From a phage, in NCBI GenBank assembly GCA_036611895.1, contig GCA_036611895.1_4766.1: a stretch of 64,000 nucleotides of DNA; one strand, 5' to 3'. The position numbers and the translations under genes are program-made. The notes under the pieces are model-generated. The model ran no database searches, had not been told where the DNA came from, and was given only the letters and a program-made list of their open reading frames with translations. Shown here piece after piece: positions 45,263 through 51,529 of this stretch; within the stretch, counting starts at the first letter, position 1; every line of letters begins with the position of its first letter.

Positions 45263-47320
45263 ATGAACGAGTTATTCTCACAAGGTGGTAAAGGCTCTAC
45301 TGGTATTCTTACCAATAAACAAGCCATTGCTCGTAAGTTCGGTGTTAAGCATAATGAAGTAGTCTACTTTGCTGTAGGTGTAGACTTGGGTGGTTATAAA
45401 GTCATCTATGACAAGTCTACTCAGCGTGCTTATTCTTTACCTGCACTACCGGTAGGAACCACTGCTGTAAGTCTCAATGTACATGCAGTTCTGGTTCATT
45501 CAGCAGGTACAGTTGATTTGGGTGAACTGGCTGCTACACGTAGGGAGTTCGTAAACCTATCCGACTCGTTTGCTACCGGTTTAATCGTGAATACTAGAAA
45601 TGAATTACTATTCCATAATGGTATAGGTTACACCTACTTAGGCACTCTACCTGTAACAATTACCGCAGGAATTAATCCAGTTGGCAACCCCGATTGGAAA
45701 CCTCAGACAGACCCGAATTTTGGGCGGGATGAAGTTAATGATGACATTCGTGCTTACGTTAGAGACGGCGATCCCATCGCCCCAGACTATACTCAAGCAT
45801 TAAAGCGAGCTATAGCAAGTGGTCGTGGTCGTGTTTACATTAATGTACCTGTTGAGATTAAAGAGGATTTGACAATCCCACGTCTTTTCCGGGTAGATGT
45901 AGATAAAAACGGGTATATATACTCAACGACAAATAAAGTTCGTATTGAGGGTTTTATTAACTCAATAGGTGGTGGTGATCCGTATCGCAACTATATCAAA
46001 CAATACGGGGTCAATTCCTCTACCGTCCCGGGCGTGTACATGGCTAACGTAGTGGTCAATATCCCGGAAGACTTCCCTACGATGCAGGCCGCTATAGATG
46101 CCGTACCGGATAACTACTGGCAGTTTATTACCTTGCAGATATCTGATGGAATCTACGACGAAGATTTGGTTATTCGTAATAAGAAGGGTTGCTGCCCTAC
46201 GTTCCCACCAGCTTCTGGTCAGCAGGCAATTCTGGTTATCACTAGTAAGTCTAAAGACAGGTCTAAAGTGAGCTTCCGCTCAGCTCAGGTATTTTCTTGC
46301 GGTGGTACTCCATTCTCTCCTAATCTGGAGAACCTTAACTTCACTAACCGTACGCACAGTGATGAGGATTGTTCTGTAGAATTCTACGGCTGCACTAGTG
46401 GAGCAGTTAATAAGTGCAGCTTTAATGGTGTAGGCGTAGACAAGTGCATCGAAGCATACAACAGCATAATTATCGTAGAAGCGTGCCACTTCGGGGATAA
46501 TATCAACGATAAAGGAATGGTAGTTAAGCATGGCGGTACTATCTTGTCTGCCTCTACTCAGATTGGTGGTATACTGCAACCTATTACTGGAACCTTAAAG
46601 TCCTGGGTAGCAGTAGGTATTGGTGGCACTATCATAGCTAACGACCTCAGTTCTTGTATTGGCAAGGTAGCACAGTCTCGCGTAGATGGCGTGCAGTCAG
46701 GGGTAATAGTTGAAACCGTAAGTAAGAGCATTAACGGAGTAACTAACTTCTTCAGACTAGCTACCACTCGCCACCATACGCAATTCCAGGATTATGACAA
46801 GTTCACTAATACTGTAACTGGTTCGGGTTCCAGTCTTAATTACTACCCTGAAGGGGGGTTAGTGGTTAATGCGGGTACTGCCGGAGGTACTGCCCTGCTT
46901 CGCTATAAAAGAGAACGTCGCCTAGTTCGTCAGCATGAAACCTCTAACTATTTAGGCTTTGCTGTAGCCTGCACAGTCCCCAGTGGAGTGACCGCACTTA
47001 ACTGTCATTTAGTATGTGGCTCAGTGGAAAGTGGCAACTACTTCGGTATCCGTTATATCAATAATGTCGCTCATGGCGTCATCTGCCGGGGAGGAGTAGA
47101 AACTACTACTCCATTAGCTTATAGCACTGAAACTATATGTACATGGACGTGTAAGTATTTAGGTAAGGGTGATGGTCAAGTATTGTTTATGTATGATGAT
47201 GTATATGCTGGGCATATTAATGGCATTAAGCTTGCTTCTTACGATGGCACGTATTTCGAAGCTAACGTAACCAACGCTCGCACGCAACTGTACGAACTTG
47301 AGTTCGTAAGCAGTATGTAA
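45263..47320 (+). CDS. tail fibre/spike protein
   Basis: 685-aa ORF after the first tail spike; Gly/Thr/Asn-rich beta-rich composition. Confidence 0.45.
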   Translation: MNELFSQGGKGSTGILTNKQAIARKFGVKHNEVVYFAVGVDLGGYKVIYDKSTQRAYSLPALPVGTTAVSLNVHAVLVHSAGTVDLGELAATRREFVNLSDSFATGLIVNTRNELLFHNGIGYTYLGTLPVTITAGINPVGNPDWKPQTDPNFGRDEVNDDIRAYVRDGDPIAPDYTQALKRAIASGRGRVYINVPVEIKEDLTIPRLFRVDVDKNGYIYSTTNKVRIEGFINSIGGGDPYRNYIKQYGVNSSTVPGVYMANVVVNIPEDFPTMQAAIDAVPDNYWQFITLQISDGIYDEDLVIRNKKGCCPTFPPASGQQAILVITSKSKDRSKVSFRSAQVFSCGGTPFSPNLENLNFTNRTHSDEDCSVEFYGCTSGAVNKCSFNGVGVDKCIEAYNSIIIVEACHFGDNINDKGMVVKHGGTILSASTQIGGILQPITGTLKSWVAVGIGGTIIANDLSSCIGKVAQSRVDGVQSGVIVETVSKSINGVTNFFRLATTRHHTQFQDYDKFTNTVTGSGSSLNYYPEGGLVVNAGTAGGTALLRYKRERRLVRQHETSNYLGFAVACTVPSGVTALNCHLVCGSVESGNYFGIRYINNVAHGVICRGGVETTTPLAYSTETICTWTCKYLGKGDGQVLFMYDDVYAGHINGIKLASYDGTYFEANVTNARTQLYELEFVSSM

Positions 47321-47328
47321 ATAAAACT

Positions 47329-47356
47329 AAGCCCCCTTAACTGGGGGCTTTTCTTA
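47329..47356 (+). terminator. rho-independent terminator
   Basis: AAGCCCCC-TTAACT-GGGGGCTT followed by TTCTT. Confidence 0.65.
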
Positions 47357-47569
47357 TATAGAGTCTACTGTTTGCATTACCCTAATGGATACTGATGTTA
47401 AGATTATTACTTGCCCAGATATATTAAACATACCCAACTGAATACCATCCACCATGAGTTGATACCAGATACTACGTCTGGATGTATTTCATCATACTAA
47501 GTATTATCTAAGAGTCATCTTATGATATGACCCTATTGGGGATTCTAACTACACAACTACGGTAATATT

Positions 47570-47899
47570 ATGAATGAATCGGGTGAACTACTCCTAGTCA
47601 GACTGGAGGAACGATTGAAGACTCTGTTTGAGAACCAGACAAGGGAAAGGCAGGACCGTGAGAAACTGGAGGAAACTCTGGTAGAACTACGGGATTCAAT
47701 CAATGACATAGGCAATAGGCTGAAAAATGTGGAGGATAGCTTAGCTAAGAATGAACCTACTATTGAAGAGTTCATTACCATTAAGCATAAAGTTGTTGGT
47801 GCTGGGATTTTCGGTAAGTGGGTATGGGCTGGGGCAGGTGCAATTATTGGTGTATTGGCTGCTGCAAGACGGGAGATTTTCACATGGTTCGCAGGCTAA
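47570..47899 (+). CDS. membrane protein with coiled-coil (possible holin/antiholin)
   Basis: N-terminal charged coiled-coil region and C-terminal TM helix (VVGAGIFGKWVWAGAGAIIGVLAAA); sits at the head of the lysis cassette. Confidence 0.35.
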   Translation: MNESGELLLVRLEERLKTLFENQTRERQDREKLEETLVELRDSINDIGNRLKNVEDSLAKNEPTIEEFITIKHKVVGAGIFGKWVWAGAGAIIGVLAAARREIFTWFAG

Positions 47900-48144
47900 A
47901 GAGAAAGATTGAGTTAGTACCCAATTGGAAAAGGTGCTGGAAGTGGGCATCTATTCAGATTAGTACATTTGGATTAATTATGTTTTCTGCCATAGATATC
48001 ATTCAACCAATGTTGACAGGACTACCCCGTCATATCCTGGAAGATATTCCCCATGGTTCCAATATTGCAATCGCACTGTTTGCCTTAAACATTGTAGGCA
48101 GATTAATACGATTCCGACCAAAGGAAAATTCACATGAAAGCTAA
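47884..48144 (+). CDS. holin-like protein (two TM helices)
   Basis: Starts MVRRLKRK; two hydrophobic helices; directly upstream of the endolysin. Confidence 0.45.
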   Translation: MVRRLKRKIELVPNWKRCWKWASIQISTFGLIMFSAIDIIQPMLTGLPRHILEDIPHGSNIAIALFALNIVGRLIRFRPKENSHES

Positions 48145-48769
48145 ACAGAAACTTGCTGCGAAAGGAGGTGCAGTGGGAGGAGTTGTCGCTGCTATCCTGG
48201 GGGCAGTGTTCTATATGGAAGGGGGATATGTAAACAATCCTCGTGACCCAGGTGGGGAAACTAATCATGGAATTACCCAATCTGTAGCTAAATCTCATAA
48301 AGAAGTCCTGGCTACTGAGTATGGTTGGGATGGTTCTATGAAAGGTTTATCAAAAGAGATGGCTGCTGAGATATACATTGATGACTATGTACTTAAGCCT
48401 AACTTCGTAGCCTTCGCTGATATATCTCCTGCTGTAACACACAAGCTGGTAGATGCTGGTGTTAACACTGGTGTAACCCGTCCTGCTAAGTGGTTGCAGT
48501 TATCTCTTAATGAAATGTCCCGTAATGGCAAAGACTACCCTAAAATACAGGTTGATGGTAAAGTCGGTACAAGTACTGTTAATGCATATAAAGCATTACA
48601 GAAAAAACGAGGCAAAGTTGCAGCATGTCAGGTAATGATTAAGTTACTTGACGCCAAACAACTGAACCACTACACCTCATTAAACATGCCAGACTTTACG
48701 TATGGTTGGGTAGCTAACCGAATAGGCAATGTGCCACTGGAGGCATGTAATGAAGATGCTAATCTCTAA
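48134..48769 (+). CDS. endolysin, GH108-type N-acetylmuramidase with peptidoglycan-binding domain
   Basis: EGGYVNNPRDPGGETNHGIT signature; AAGGAAA RBS; Gly/Ala-rich N-terminal hydrophobic segment (possible SAR). Confidence 0.75.
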   Translation: MKAKQKLAAKGGAVGGVVAAILGAVFYMEGGYVNNPRDPGGETNHGITQSVAKSHKEVLATEYGWDGSMKGLSKEMAAEIYIDDYVLKPNFVAFADISPAVTHKLVDAGVNTGVTRPAKWLQLSLNEMSRNGKDYPKIQVDGKVGTSTVNAYKALQKKRGKVAACQVMIKLLDAKQLNHYTSLNMPDFTYGWVANRIGNVPLEACNEDANL

Positions 48770-49256
48770 AGGTTGGCCTTATCTTCTGGTGGTGGTCCTT
48801 GGGGCCACCATTTACTTTTGGGGTAATTCCAATGGGCAGTCTACTGTTCAAAAGAAATGGGATGCTCAAAAGGTTGAAGACCAAAAGGCAACACAAAAAT
48901 TACAGGACAAATACAATGCTCTCCAAAGAAACCATAGTTATGAAGTCGGGTTACTCACTTCCCGGTTGCAGACGGCTGAGAGTAATTACGCAAGCGAGCT
49001 TGCTCGCGTTAGCAGTGATTACGACAGCCGGATGCAACAGTCTGAAAGACGAGCATCGGTATATAAACGTCAAGCCGAAGCCGGAGCCTTTGAGTGCAGA
49101 AGTCTTGCAAGCCATGCAGCCAGACTCGACAACAGTCTTGAAGAAGGCAGACGTTTGGTTGAAGAACTCCGGGCAACTGTTAGACTCCGTGACAGCCAAC
49201 TAATTGAGTTGGGTAAACAGATTCAGGCTGACCGTAAACTTTTTGAACAGGAATAA
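48750..49256 (+). CDS. i-spanin (Rz-like)
   Basis: N-terminal TM ([17 protein letters not shown]) followed by a coiled-coil region; GGAGG RBS 7 nt upstream. Confidence 0.6.
48940..49203 (+). CDS. o-spanin (Rz1-like lipoprotein), embedded in +1 frame of the i-spanin
   Basis: Signal peptide ending in lipobox-like TAGC, followed by a Pro-rich mature part of about 56 aa. Confidence 0.55.
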   Translation: MKSGYSLPGCRRLRVITQASLLALAVITTAGCNSLKDEHRYINVKPKPEPLSAEVLQAMQPDSTTVLKKADVWLKNSGQLLDSVTAN

Positions 49257-49258
49257 CT

Positions 49259-51529
49259 ATGGAACACCAAGACACTTTTAAGCCTTTACCAGACCCGGCT
49301 CAATCAGAGAAGTTAACGGACTGGAAGAAGGAACCAAGTATCCAATTACTGAAAGGTGATTTGGAATCAGCTAAACCTGCTCACGATGCAATCATGGCAC
49401 AGATTCGTGAGTGGAATGACCTGATGGAAGTTAAGGGTAAGGCTAAACCCCCAAAGGTTAAAGGACGATCCCAAGTCCAACCTAGACTGGTTCGCCGTCA
49501 GGCAGAGTGGCGTTATGCTCCATTGTCTGAACCATTCCTCTCATCCAATAAACTTTTCAAGGTAACCCCTGTAACTTTTGAAGATGAGTTAGCTGCACGT
49601 CAGAATGAATTAGTTCTTAACTACCAATTCCGTACTCAGCTTAATAAAGTAAAACTGGTAGATGATTATGTTCACAGTATCGTAGATGACGGTACTGGTA
49701 TTGCTCGCATTGGTTGGGAACGTAAGACTGTTAAGATTAAAACAGAAACTCCAGTCTTCCAGTTGTATCCGATTGAGAACCAAGAACAAGCAGATATTCT
49801 TCAGCAGGCTTTACAGCTTCAGGCAGAAAATCCTCGTGAGTATGATGAAACAATGCCCGAAGATATTAAGGAAGCTGTTAACTACTTCAATGAAACTGGA
49901 GAAGCTACCTATGCAATCCAGACTGGTGTTACTGAGGTAGAGGTAGAGAAAGCACTGGTTAACAGACCGACTGTTGAAATGCTTAACCCCAATAACGTAG
50001 TTATTGACCCAAGCTGTAATGGGGACTTGGACAAAGCTTTGTATGCAGTTATCTCGTTTGAGACATGCAAAGCAGACCTCATGAAGAACAAGGACCGTTA
50101 CCACAATCTGGATAAGATTGACTGGGAAAGTTCTAGTCCTATGACTGACCCAGACCATGAAAGTAAAACTCCTAGTGACTTTCAGTTTAAAGATGCACTA
50201 CGTAAGAAAGTAGTTGCTTATGAATACTGGGGATTCTACGACATCAATGATGATGGTTCGCTGGAACCAATTGTTGCTACCTGGATTGGTTCTACTCTTA
50301 TCCGTATGGAGAAGAACCCATTCCCGGATGGTAAGTTACCGTTGGTAGTTGTTCCTTACATGCCACGTAAACGTGAACTCTATGGTGAAGCTGATGCTGA
50401 ATTGTTAGGTGATAATCAAGCAATTCTTGGTGCAACTATGCGTGGGATGATTGACCTGTTGGGTCGAAGTGCAAATGGACAACGTGGTTATCCTAAAGGG
50501 ATGTTAGATACCCTTAACCGTCGTCGTTATGATGATGGACAAGACTATGAATACAACCCAATGCAGGGTAACCCTAGTCAGGCCATTATGGAACATAAGT
50601 TCCCTGAGTTACCTCAGTCGGCAATAGTAATGACTCAGATGCAGAACCAGGAAGCAGAAGCACTAACAGGTGTTAAAGCATTCTCTGGTGGCGTAACTGG
50701 TGAAGCTTACGGTGATGTTGCTGCTGGTATTCGTGGTGTACTCGATGCAGCATCCAAACGTGAGATGGCAATCCTTCGTCGATTAGCTAAGGGTATGGCA
50801 GACATTGGTACTAAGATTTGTGCAATGAATGCTGTGTTCTTATCTGAGAAGGAAGTGGTACGTATTACTAATGAGCAGTATGTAGAAATTAACCGTGAAG
50901 ACCTTAAAGGTAACTTCGATATTGAAGTTGATATTAATACTGCTGAGATTGATAACCAGAAATCTCAAGACCTGAGCTTCATGGTTCAAACGTTAGGTAA
51001 TACAGTGGACCAGACTATTACGTTATCTCTTGTAGCTAAGATTGCAGAACTTAAACGTATGCCTGACCTTGCTCATGAGTTACGTACCTGGCGACCACAA
51101 CCAGACCCTATGGAAGAACAGCTTAAGCAATTGGCAATTCAGAAAGCACAGCTTGAGAATGAAGAGTTGAAAAGTAAGATTGCACTCAATAATGCTAAAG
51201 CGAAAGAAGCTATTTCTAGTGGTGACCTTAAAGACCTGGATTATCTGGAACAGGAATCTGGTACTAAACATGCTCGTGATATGGAGAAACAAAAAGCACA
51301 ATCTCAAGGAAACCAGAACCTTCAGATAACTAAGGCGTTGACAACACCTACTAAAGAAGGTGAAACTACCCCCAACATATCTGCTGCTGTCGGATATAAC
51401 GCTTTGACTAACGGGAACTCTTTACAGGAACGTGACTTAGCTGCACAGCAAGACCCGACTTATTCACTTAGTTCCCAGTATTATGACCCTAGCCAAGACC
51501 CAGCATCGGCTCTTGGTATGAACTTATAA
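49259..51529 (+). CDS. portal protein
   Basis: 756-aa ORF upstream of scaffold-like and capsid genes; assignment by size and synteny. Confidence 0.5.

Follow-up and report, generated by a model that had tools for sequence, protein, structure and literature searches.

Does the region at 47570-49256 of this phage genome encode a complete lysis cassette, with a signal-arrest-release (SAR) endolysin and an o-spanin gene fully embedded in another gene, and how does it relate to lysis systems that have already been described? We addressed this question in a window of 64,000 nucleotides, the whole stretch of DNA that was analyzed (GenBank assembly GCA_036611895.1, contig GCA_036611895.1_4766.1), for which an earlier reading of the letters alone (the original prediction) was available. 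All of the ORFs and features named in that reading were found where it had placed them, on the + strand. By its sequence, the phage is a Gamaleyavirus (G7C-like, N4-like Schitoviridae), a podophage of E. coli. Five + strand genes that overlap translationally are flanked by the tail spike gene and the portal gene (table 1), and Gamaleyavirus relatives show the same arrangement of tail spike, cassette, and portal. We consider it highly probable that the region is an ordinary five-gene lysis module of the N4 type, comprising a pinholin, a holin, a SAR endolysin, an i-spanin, and a nested o-spanin.

In particular, the region is the predicted late-expressed multigene lysis cassette that corresponds, gene for gene, to gp63-gp62-gp61-gp60/gp60a of N4. 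The gene order, the overlaps, and the placement between tail-fibre and portal genes were the same in N4; the five orthologues were 57-79% identical; and the Pfam and PHROG domain matches of the cassette were far above chance. N4 gp61 was reportedly recognized as a muramidase by Stojkovic and Rothman-Denes in 2007. The functional data on N4 come from a preprint by Awuah et al., in which gp63, gp62, gp61, and gp60/gp60a were described as a pinholin, a late holin, a SAR endolysin, and functional embedded spanins, respectively (bioRxiv 10.1101/2025.11.12.688109). The SAR, pinholin, holin, and spanin activities were demonstrated for the N4 proteins only, and the window proteins would share them by orthology; our own observations concern gene order and overlaps, domain content, the composition of the SAR segment, the lipobox, orthology with N4, and dual-coding selection on the o-spanin.

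The lysis system is already known, having been dissected experimentally in N4 and annotated in near-identical phages. The DNA of the cassette region was approximately 95% identical to that of many GenBank phages; the closest record showed 95.4% identity, and none was identical. Cassettes of Gamaleyavirus have been annotated or compared in St11Ph5 (gp63-gp60.1), G7C, Bp4, pSb-1, ECBP1, and UE-M6, and the proteins of the St11Ph5, pSb-1, and ECBP1 type were 94-99% identical to those of the window. The annotations in related Gamaleyavirus records include holin, N-acetylmuramidase, and Rz/Rz1 spanins, with the embedded gene among them; the latter was annotated in St11Ph5 (gp60.1) and in AlfredRasser (o-spanin). 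An Rfam scan of 46800-49800 returned just two sub-threshold chance matches, and a sigma-70 promoter scan gave a site count not above the shuffled expectation. Three antisense ORFs (47557-47883, 47999-48298, and 48951-49199) had no family match and were taken as non-coding.

Table 1. Predicted genes and the SAR-type segment of the cassette, with family matches and identity to the N4 orthologues. Pfam cut-offs for the endolysin are gathering scores.
Feature	Position	Strand	Description	Family or structure match	N4 orthologue
Pinholin (gp63-like)	47570..47899	+	109 aa	phrog_5211, 1.3e-49	gp63, 67% identical over 107 residues, E 3e-53
Holin (gp62-like)	47884..48144	+	86 aa, two predicted transmembrane domains	DUF7940 (PF25612), 52.1 bits (cut-off 27); phrog_1356 'holin', 8.7e-30	gp62, 62% identical
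Endolysin (gp61-like)	48134..48769	+	211 aa; N-terminal SAR-type segment, GH108, PG_binding_3	Glyco_hydro_108 (PF05838), 71.9 bits (cut-off 21.2), E 6.3e-20; PG_binding_3 (PF09374), 31.9 bits (cut-off 24.6), E 1.5e-07; PDB 6v3z, E 5e-27	gp61, 70% identical, E 6e-111
SAR-type segment	48164..48217	+	Endolysin residues G11-M28, GGAVGGVVAAILGAVFYM		
i-Spanin (gp60-like)	48750..49256	+	168 aa	phrog_6197 'Rz-like spanin', 4.8e-78	gp60, 57% identical
o-Spanin (gp60a-like)	48916..49203	+	95-aa precursor, embedded in the +1 frame of the i-spanin gene		gp60a, mature part 79% identical, 56 aa in both

The N-terminal segment of the endolysin

The original prediction had assigned a weakly hydrophobic N-terminus of the SAR type to the endolysin, and the string that it quoted, AAKGGAVGGVVAAILGAVF, corresponds to residues 8-26. 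The core of the segment, as delimited in table 1, spans 18 residues, none of them charged; Gly and Ala make up 50% of it, and its Kyte-Doolittle mean is 1.87. The preceding MKAKQKLAAK places K2, K4, K6, and K10 on the N-terminal side, and E29-G-G-Y (48218-48229) follows directly, with E29 on the C-terminal side. The remaining transmembrane domains (TMDs) of the cassette contain 12-28% Gly+Ala, with the exception of the pinholin TMD (52%). The segment aligns residue for residue with the SAR domain of N4 gp61, which likewise has 50% Gly+Ala, and the alignment includes the Gly whose mutation gives rapid lysis in N4 (G12, equivalent to G15 in the window). Gly/Ala-rich N-terminal segments were also observed in the orthologues of Erwinia, Xanthomonas, and Achromobacter phages; the segment of the Pseudomonas ZC08 orthologue is hydrophobic and not Gly/Ala-rich. 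Compared with N4 gp61, the window endolysin has an ATG start and a longer, more basic n-region. Thus, the call of a SAR-type endolysin was borne out by the Gly/Ala-rich core and by its aligned counterpart in a SAR endolysin, and from orthology and composition we infer that the window protein would be exported by Sec, tethered, and released. A summed 'biological hydrophobicity' over 19-residue windows did not separate the segment from ordinary TMDs because the flanking charges fell inside the windows; this measure was replaced by the Gly/Ala content of uncharged cores.

In N4, gp61 complemented endolysin defects both in lambda and in the pinholin-only hy21 background, gp61 alone caused cells to round slowly, and Gly-to-Glu changes in its SAR domain, such as G12E, resulted in rapid lysis (bioRxiv 10.1101/2025.11.12.688109). 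These results bear on two other readings of the segment. The first is a cleavable Sec signal peptide, by which the enzyme would be secreted and would be neither tethered nor releasable. In its n-region and h-region, the segment is indeed laid out like a signal peptide, and the N4 sequence VFA/V before EGGY fits the -3/-1 rule. However, when cleavage was judged by eye, the window was found to carry VFY/M at this place, with a bulky Tyr at -1, and no polar c-region was observed, as the hydrophobic core meets the conserved E29-G-G-Y directly. Moreover, the Pfam GH108 match starts at residue 24, so that cleavage would cut the domain, the N4 rapid-lysis mutants with Glu in the segment behave as if the tether were lost, and N4 gp61 has been reported to be membrane-associated. 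We thus regard a cleaved signal as exceedingly unlikely.

The second reading is a stable type II anchor, which would leave the enzyme either permanently tethered or cytoplasmic and dependent on the gp62-like large-hole holin. It is favored by the hydrophobicity of the core, which is no lower than that of the remaining cassette TMDs, and by the presence of a canonical holin gene. However, the Gly/Ala content equals that of the proven N4 SAR domain, N4 gp62 is dispensable, and N4 gp61 works with the pinholin alone; in addition, the catalytic motif stands one residue past an 18-residue TMD, and murein would probably be out of its reach as long as the enzyme was tethered. A stable anchor is therefore very unlikely, and the SAR reading is preferred.

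The window and the 12 distinct orthologue N-termini that were recovered in full all have EGGY where the catalytic domain starts, four loci without a recovered N-terminus being left out of this count. We take the Glu of this motif to be catalytic in GH108. Because no spacer separates the SAR helix from the proposed catalytic Glu29, GH108 SAR endolysins might be inactive through membrane proximity or active-site burial. In the close relative UE-M6 (95% identical), the holin and the endolysin were expressed and active, and the N-terminal segment lay outside that study (PMC12661215).

The putative pinholin and holin

The two membrane proteins upstream of the endolysin had been put forward as holin or antiholin candidates. 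The holin part of this proposal stood, with a pinholin in addition, but an antiholin was not supported, since the N4 orthologues gp63 and gp62 are a pinholin and a late holin. Complementation by N4 gp63 was obtained for the S21 pinholin and not for lambda S, and gp62 acts as a late-triggering canonical holin (bioRxiv 10.1101/2025.11.12.688109). By homology with gp63, the 109-aa protein is the predicted lysis-timing pinholin. Its N-terminal half is a cytoplasmic coiled coil; residues 63-74 form a conserved 'LIN' stretch (PTIEEFITIKHK), and a Gly/Ala-rich TMD lies at the C-terminus (approximately residues 75-98). The LIN and TMD parts of gp63-like proteins are kept across Schitoviridae genera, and PTIEEFITIKHKVVGAG and the TMD are nearly invariant.

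The LIN stretch PTIEEFITIKHK is identical in N4 and the window, and differences were observed elsewhere in the protein. The internal Met13 and Met17 of N4 gp63 are Leu in the window, and for this reason the alternative start is absent here; the N4 LIN-domain residue S62 is Asn in the window pinholin. The Asn occupies the position at which S62F abolishes lysis inhibition in N4. The window allele of gp63 belongs to the pSb-1/St11Ph5 type, and its N-terminal half (approximately 60 codons), together with the upstream intergenic region, showed no DNA similarity to the G7C-type allele, whereas the remainder of the cassette was 85-99% identical.

The holin gene overlaps the pinholin gene by 16 nt. 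For the UE-M6 holin (94-96% identical), DeepTMHMM placed TM helices at 22-37 and 61-71, with a cytoplasmic N-terminus (PMC12661215), and the window holin is likewise modeled with two TMDs and cytoplasmic N- and C-termini. N4 gp62 has been described as dual-start. A putative long form of the window protein (108 aa) would start at GTG 47818 and overlap the TMD codons of the pinholin; its frame was open in most relatives and closed in L012, and synonymous-site conservation of the overlapped pinholin codons was not consistently raised.

The o-spanin gene embedded in the i-spanin gene

The i-spanin frame has its longest ORF from 48729, and the ATG at 48750 is preceded by a GGAGG Shine-Dalgarno sequence 6 nt upstream. 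The predicted protein contains an N-terminal TMD (residues 8-25; 48771-48824) and, after it, a domain of approximately 143 periplasmic residues with a single Cys, C115, which is kept in N4, where it is also the only one; the rule on periplasmic Cys and intermolecular disulfides in spanins was taken from PMC6139136. The o-spanin ORF lies wholly inside this gene with a frame offset of 1. Its start codon has an AGGA Shine-Dalgarno sequence 8 nt upstream, and the Met at 48916 was kept in relatives that have no second Met; if the alternative start at 48940 were used, the precursor would be 87 aa long. The h-region is followed by the lipobox TAGC (49024-49035, with the Cys codon at 49033-49035), which leaves a mature protein of 56 aa (49033-49200) with Asn at +2 and no Cys beyond the one predicted to be lipidated. 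With the conserved start, this Cys is at position 40, and the signal peptide would be unusually long; it is longer than that of N4 and unrelated to it in sequence. The original prediction had described such an embedded ORF, and its frame, signal, and lipobox were all recovered; 'Pro-rich' was a generous description, with 4 Pro in the 56 mature residues, clustered as KPKPEP.

The lipobox was judged by the consensus [LVI][ASTVI][GAS]C and by the exclusion of Asp at +2 in o-spanins. Although its Thr at -3 is off this consensus, TAGC was conserved throughout the clade; N4 has IVGC, and LAGC, LLGC, IVGC, and similar sequences were found in other genera. A PROSITE-like lipoprotein pattern matched 13 of 14 o-spanin entries, the window included (12 phages, with window and N4 each entered with two alternative starts), and the sole non-match was the o-spanin of Erwinia phage Tellus, whose LAGC lipobox is canonical. 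The +2 residue was never Asp among the o-spanins examined.

An open +1 frame may also arise by chance, in which case there would be no gene here. When gp60 codons were permuted synonymously, the +1 frame was open over 95 codons or more in 32% of the permutations, which means that a protein of this amino-acid composition will often have such an open frame; the observed 146 codons were reached in 2%. ORF length (p = 0.32 at the 95-codon threshold, 0.02 at 146 codons) was therefore dropped as evidence for the embedded gene; as it was too weak, patterns of conservation and substitution were used instead. PHROGs and Pfam searches with the o-spanin also gave no match, which would fit a chance frame but is explained by the absence of embedded spanins from those libraries.

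By contrast, the peptide was widely conserved. It was found by tblastn in 27 of 27 related loci, and the tblastn-aligned part of the mature peptide showed 43-67% identity in Stenotrophomonas, Achromobacter, Erwinia, Pseudomonas, and Xanthomonas phages. Conservation of the two frames over the same 168 nt was much alike, at 41-64% for the o-spanin and 48-64% for the i-spanin. In every distinct o-spanin examined, a signal sequence and the lipobox Cys were kept, the Cys also in seven loci of other genera, and the mature part was 54-59 residues long. Among close relatives, nucleotide divergence was 7.7% where gp60 is not overlapped and dropped to 3.1% in the mature-o-spanin stretch, and substitutions at positions 1/2/3 of the i-spanin codons changed from 31/27/95 to 31/16/16, the peak shifting to the third codon position of the o-spanin. 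Between the window and N4, DNA identity was 83% in the dual-coding stretch and 61-68% for most of the cassette. This substitution pattern shows dual coding, with the embedded gene under selection. In addition, N4 gp60/gp60a complement lambda Rz/Rz1 amber mutants (bioRxiv 10.1101/2025.11.12.688109). We regard the conservation of the ORF as decisive for its being a gene, judged from the compared sequences, and there is next to no chance that the frame is fortuitously open.

Predicted lysis pathway and its variation

By orthology with N4, we propose the following course of lysis. The endolysin would be exported by Sec and held inactive at the inner membrane by its weakly hydrophobic, Gly/Ala-rich SAR helix, probably with its basic N-terminus cytoplasmic and its GH108 domain periplasmic. 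The C-terminally anchored 109-aa pinholin would accumulate, trigger, and depolarize the membrane, upon which all of the SAR endolysin would be freed at once, and the freed muramidase would refold and degrade the murein around the whole cell. The two-TMD holin may act as an accessory, later-triggering large-hole former. Once the murein is gone, a spanin complex of the type II i-spanin and the 56-residue outer-membrane lipoprotein, their C-termini joined across the periplasm, would disrupt the outer membrane, probably via membrane fusion.

The same logic, a Sec-exported tethered endolysin freed by depolarization, is known from S21/R21 of phage 21 and from P1 Lyz, although these proteins are unrelated to those of the window in sequence and fold. 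The window endolysin is a GH108 muramidase rather than a T4-lysozyme-like enzyme, and the window pinholin combines a single C-terminal TMD with a cytoplasmic coiled coil, against two TMDs in S21; N4 gp61 and gp63 functionally replace R21 and S21 (bioRxiv 10.1101/2025.11.12.688109). Lambda Rz/Rz1 shows the same nesting, with the whole o-spanin gene inside the i-spanin gene in its +1 frame. In units of the i-spanin gene length (L), the window o-spanin extends from approximately 0.33 L to 0.89 L, near the 0.4-0.5 L to 0.9-1 L that is typical of the embedded arrangement (PMC6139136). The window i-spanin showed no detectable sequence similarity to lambda Rz and only a weak match to PHROG Rz-like families. 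Unlike lambda Rz1, which has 10 Pro in 40 residues (PMC6139136), the window o-spanin lacks a penta-proline stretch.

This cassette carries little weight for discovery, being a textbook-style system with characterized N4 orthologues and annotated close relatives, and its value is practical, for the annotation of Gamaleyavirus records. In most of these records, the gp63-like pinholin is a 'hypothetical protein' and the endolysin is labeled a plain muramidase with no mention of a SAR domain; the embedded o-spanin was omitted from several. For antibacterial use of such endolysins, it matters that a membrane-targeting segment is part of the full-length protein.

The regulation of lysis in the window phage may differ from that in N4, since G7C, of the same genus as the window, was reported to lack N4 lysis inhibition. 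From the difference between gp63 alleles, the Asn at the S62 position, and the absence of internal starts, we suggest that gp63 alleles could decide whether an N4-like phage shows lysis inhibition. The joint proposal that a swappable N-terminal module of the pinholin sets lysis timing in the genus, and/or that membrane proximity inactivates GH108 SAR endolysins, is a speculative one that we rate as rather improbable. If true, membrane-proximity inactivation would add a third mode of regulation to those of P1 Lyz (disulfide caging) and R21 (refolding), and the natural allelic variation in the cytoplasmic half of the pinholin may offer material for studying how lysis inhibition of the N4 type is controlled.

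Organization of the lysis cassette

Five densely packed genes lie on the + strand, flanked by those for the tail spike (45263-47320) and the portal (49259-51529), and the lysis cassette of the original prediction was confirmed. In family searches, the 211-aa protein exceeded the Pfam cut-offs for Glyco_hydro_108 (71.9 bits against 21.2) and PG_binding_3 (31.9 bits against 24.6) and also matched phrog_315 ("endolysin") and a solved structure of GH108 type, 6v3z (E 5e-27); the 86-aa protein matched DUF7940 and phrog_1356 ("holin"), and the 168-aa protein matched phrog_6197 ("Rz-like spanin", 4.8e-78). The sole match of the 109-aa protein in Pfam and PHROG searches was the uncharacterised phrog_5211, and family searches gave no match for the antisense ORFs or the embedded ORF. 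An Rfam scan of the cassette region returned no family at or above threshold. A GGAGG Shine-Dalgarno sequence was located 6 nt 5' of ATG 48750 of the 168-aa gene; the 48729 start of a longer ORF differs from the start annotated in relatives.

Genes of the lysis cassette and pairwise BLASTP comparison with N4 orthologues
Gene	Position	Strand	Overlap or frame	N4 orthologue	Identity	E
109-aa protein (pinholin)	47570-47899	+		gp63	67%	3e-53
86-aa protein (holin)	47884-48144	+	16 nt with 109-aa gene	gp62	62%	3e-43
211-aa protein (endolysin)	48134-48769	+	11 nt with 86-aa gene	gp61	70%	6e-111
168-aa protein (i-spanin)	48750-49256	+	20 nt with 211-aa gene	gp60	57%	3e-59
Nested ORF (o-spanin)	48916-49203	+	+1 frame of 168-aa gene	gp60a		

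About 55 Gamaleyavirus phages of Escherichia and Shigella (a genus within Schitoviridae, Enquatrovirinae), such as PD205, ECBP1, St11Ph5, Bp4, pSb-1, and UE-M6, shared 94-97% DNA identity with the cassette region. St11Ph5 is annotated with gp63 (hypothetical), gp62 (putative holin), gp61 (N-acetylmuramidase), and gp60.2 and gp60.1 (Rz/Rz1 spanins), and its embedded spanin gene corresponds to the nested ORF. The same arrangement adjoins the portal gene of N4, whose cassette was dissected in a Ramsey laboratory preprint (bioRxiv 10.1101/2025.11.12.688109). The pairwise identities to the N4 proteins indicated that the window cassette is an orthologue of this system, which is already known both from the N4 experiments and from annotated Gamaleyavirus genomes that are near-identical. 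Thus, the original interpretation is supported, with SAR (signal-arrest-release) behaviour and lipidation remaining predicted for the Gamaleyavirus proteins.

Just 3' of the tail-spike gene, a bidirectional terminator-like hairpin was observed at 47329-47350 (AAGCCCCC-TTAACT-GGGGGCTT, then a T-run). In phage nithesis, the intergenic region downstream of the equivalent hairpin holds an additional minus-strand ORF of 208 aa that lacks a Pfam match; therefore, this spot tolerates insertions. The tail-spike protein (685 aa) has only its first ~140 residues in common with PHROG tail-spike/tail-fibre families, and its central part hit Pectinesterase below threshold (20.5 bits, cut-off 27), which suggests a beta-helix. 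Such a layout is typical of a conserved adaptor fused to a swapped receptor-binding or enzymatic domain.

The embedded o-spanin gene

The computed offset of the o-spanin ORF relative to the i-spanin gene was +1, as predicted. Its length alone is insufficient as evidence for a gene: in synonymous-codon permutations of gp60, the +1 frame stayed open for at least 95 codons in 32% of trials and for at least 146 codons, the observed value, in 2%. Conservation is decisive for the gene being real. By tblastn, the mature peptide was found in 27 of 27 related loci, its identity being 43-67% where the phage host belonged to one of five other genera, and each distinct sequence examined had a signal sequence and a lipobox Cys, with 54-59 residues in the mature part. 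Among close relatives, which are not phylogenetically independent, the non-overlapped part of gp60 diverged by 7.7%, with 31/27/95 substitutions at codon positions 1/2/3, and the mature-o-spanin-coding stretch by 3.1%, with 31/16/16 at the i-frame positions. In the overlap, the excess shifts to position 1 of the i-frame codons, equivalent to position 3 of the o-spanin codons, and this direction is a prediction of dual coding. DNA identity to N4 was 83% in the mature-o-spanin-coding stretch and 61-68% in most of the cassette. The mature o-spanin, with 56 residues as in N4 gp60a (bioRxiv 10.1101/2025.11.12.688109), was 79% identical to it, whereas the signal peptides are unrelated in sequence. 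Together, N4 gp60 and the fully embedded gp60a complement lambda Rz/Rz1 (bioRxiv 10.1101/2025.11.12.688109).

Translation from ATG 48916, preceded by an AGGA Shine-Dalgarno sequence 8 nt 5', places the lipobox Cys at position 40; a second Met (48940) would place it at position 32. The latter is replaced by Thr in ECBP1 and missing from one related locus (L011), and the 48916 Met is retained; therefore, 48916 is the conserved start in this clade. The predicted lipoprotein signal was recovered, with the TAGC site present and a PROSITE-like lipoprotein pattern matched. TAGC deviates from the consensus [LVI][ASTVI][GAS]C at -3, and further deviant spanin lipoboxes, one of them validated, were recorded by Kongari et al. 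(PMC6139136). Asn at +2 is consistent with outer-membrane sorting. The mature domain, described as Pro-rich, is only modestly so, because it has 4 Pro in 56 residues (KPKPEP). It has no cysteine beyond the lipobox Cys, and the i-spanin has one periplasmic Cys. An 11-bp hairpin at 48788-48812 (GGTGGTGGTCC-TTG-GGGCCACCATT), 38 nt 3' of the i-spanin start, lies within the i-spanin TMD codons; it may simply result from the codons for LVVVLGATI, or it may influence translation.

The endolysin and its SAR-type segment

The Gly/Ala-rich string noted in the original prediction corresponds to endolysin residues 8-26, and composition and N4 alignment both supported a SAR-type segment. Its uncharged core, G11-M28 (GGAVGGVVAAILGAVFYM), has 18 residues with 50% Gly+Ala, equal to the N4 gp61 SAR core, compared with 22% in the i-spanin TMD and 12-28% in the holin TMDs. 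Four Lys precede the core, and Glu29 of the conserved EGGY motif directly follows it. The alignment with the N4 SAR domain is gap-free, with G15 equivalent to N4 G12. A Gly/Ala-rich segment before EGGY is kept in orthologues of Erwinia, Xanthomonas, and Achromobacter phages; its Pseudomonas ZC08 counterpart (SAILAIILSILAV) is hydrophobic with little Gly and Ala, and the Stenotrophomonas phage C121 record carries the annotation "SAR endolysin N-acetylmuramidase".

In N4, gp61 is an N-acetylmuramidase associated with the membrane, and its SAR domain is Gly/Ala-rich and flanked by Lys. The enzyme complements defects in the endolysins of lambda and of a hy21 lysogen that has only a pinholin; by itself it makes cells round up slowly, and Gly-to-Glu changes in the SAR domain, such as G12E, cause rapid lysis (bioRxiv 10.1101/2025.11.12.688109). 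Judged from the sequence, it is unlikely that the window segment is instead a cleaved signal peptide, since it lacks a polar c-region, has VFY where N4 has a VFA motif, and already contains the beginning of the Pfam GH108 match, at residue 24. By analogy with N4, the window endolysin would show SAR behaviour proper (export, tethering, and release). An in-frame ATG at 48215-48217 (Met28), directly 5' of EGGY, is kept in Gamaleyavirus and is Val in N4. A start there would yield a SAR-less cytoplasmic enzyme; it is probably not used, because no convincing Shine-Dalgarno sequence lies at the right distance.

The predicted pinholin and holin and their variation

The two upstream membrane proteins had been proposed as holin or antiholin candidates. 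Orthology upheld the holin assignment for the 86-aa protein, as an accessory holin, but pointed to a pinholin rather than an antiholin for the 109-aa protein. In architecture, the latter matches N4 gp63: its N-terminal half is coiled-coil-like, the PTIEEFITIKHKVVGAG stretch is invariant, and the C-terminal TMD is rich in Gly and Ala. Two TMDs are present in the 86-aa protein, and both termini of its UE-M6 orthologue are predicted to be cytoplasmic (DeepTMHMM; PMC12661215). In N4, gp63 (110 aa, C-terminal TMD) can stand in for the S21 pinholin but not for lambda S, its rapid-lysis mutations cluster in a "LIN domain" (S62, T65, I70, T71, and I72), and gp62 is a late-triggering, non-essential canonical holin (bioRxiv 10.1101/2025.11.12.688109).

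The holin frame is also open for 22 codons 5' of its ATG (47818-47883), from GTG 47818 right after a stop, overlapping the pinholin TMD codons. This extension is present in N4 and most relatives and closed in one (L012); for N4, a gp62 of 109 aa with two starts is described (bioRxiv 10.1101/2025.11.12.688109). Synonymous-site conservation of the overlapped pinholin codons was inconsistent as support for a translated extension.

The differences from N4 and the gp63 mosaicism within the genus are leads rather than findings. The window gp63, which shares 96% identity with its counterpart in Shigella phage pSb-1, has Leu at residues 12 and 16 where N4 has Met13 and Met17, its proposed alternative start, and so has no internal start. 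The LIN residue S62, for which S62F causes rapid lysis in N4 (bioRxiv 10.1101/2025.11.12.688109), is Asn in the window (N61, 47750-47752) and Ser in G7C-type alleles. G7C was reported without lysis inhibition, and Shigella N4-like phages may show it (bioRxiv 10.1101/2025.11.12.688109). The stretch 47321-47749, covering the intergenic region and the first ~60 gp63-like codons, is mosaic within the genus: it showed 87-97% identity to the St11Ph5, pSb-1, ECBP1, and nithesis type, and DNA similarity was essentially absent in comparisons with G7C and several IMG/VR relatives, in which the cassette downstream is 85-99% identical. Given this mosaicism, the cytoplasmic half of the pinholin looks like an exchangeable allele.
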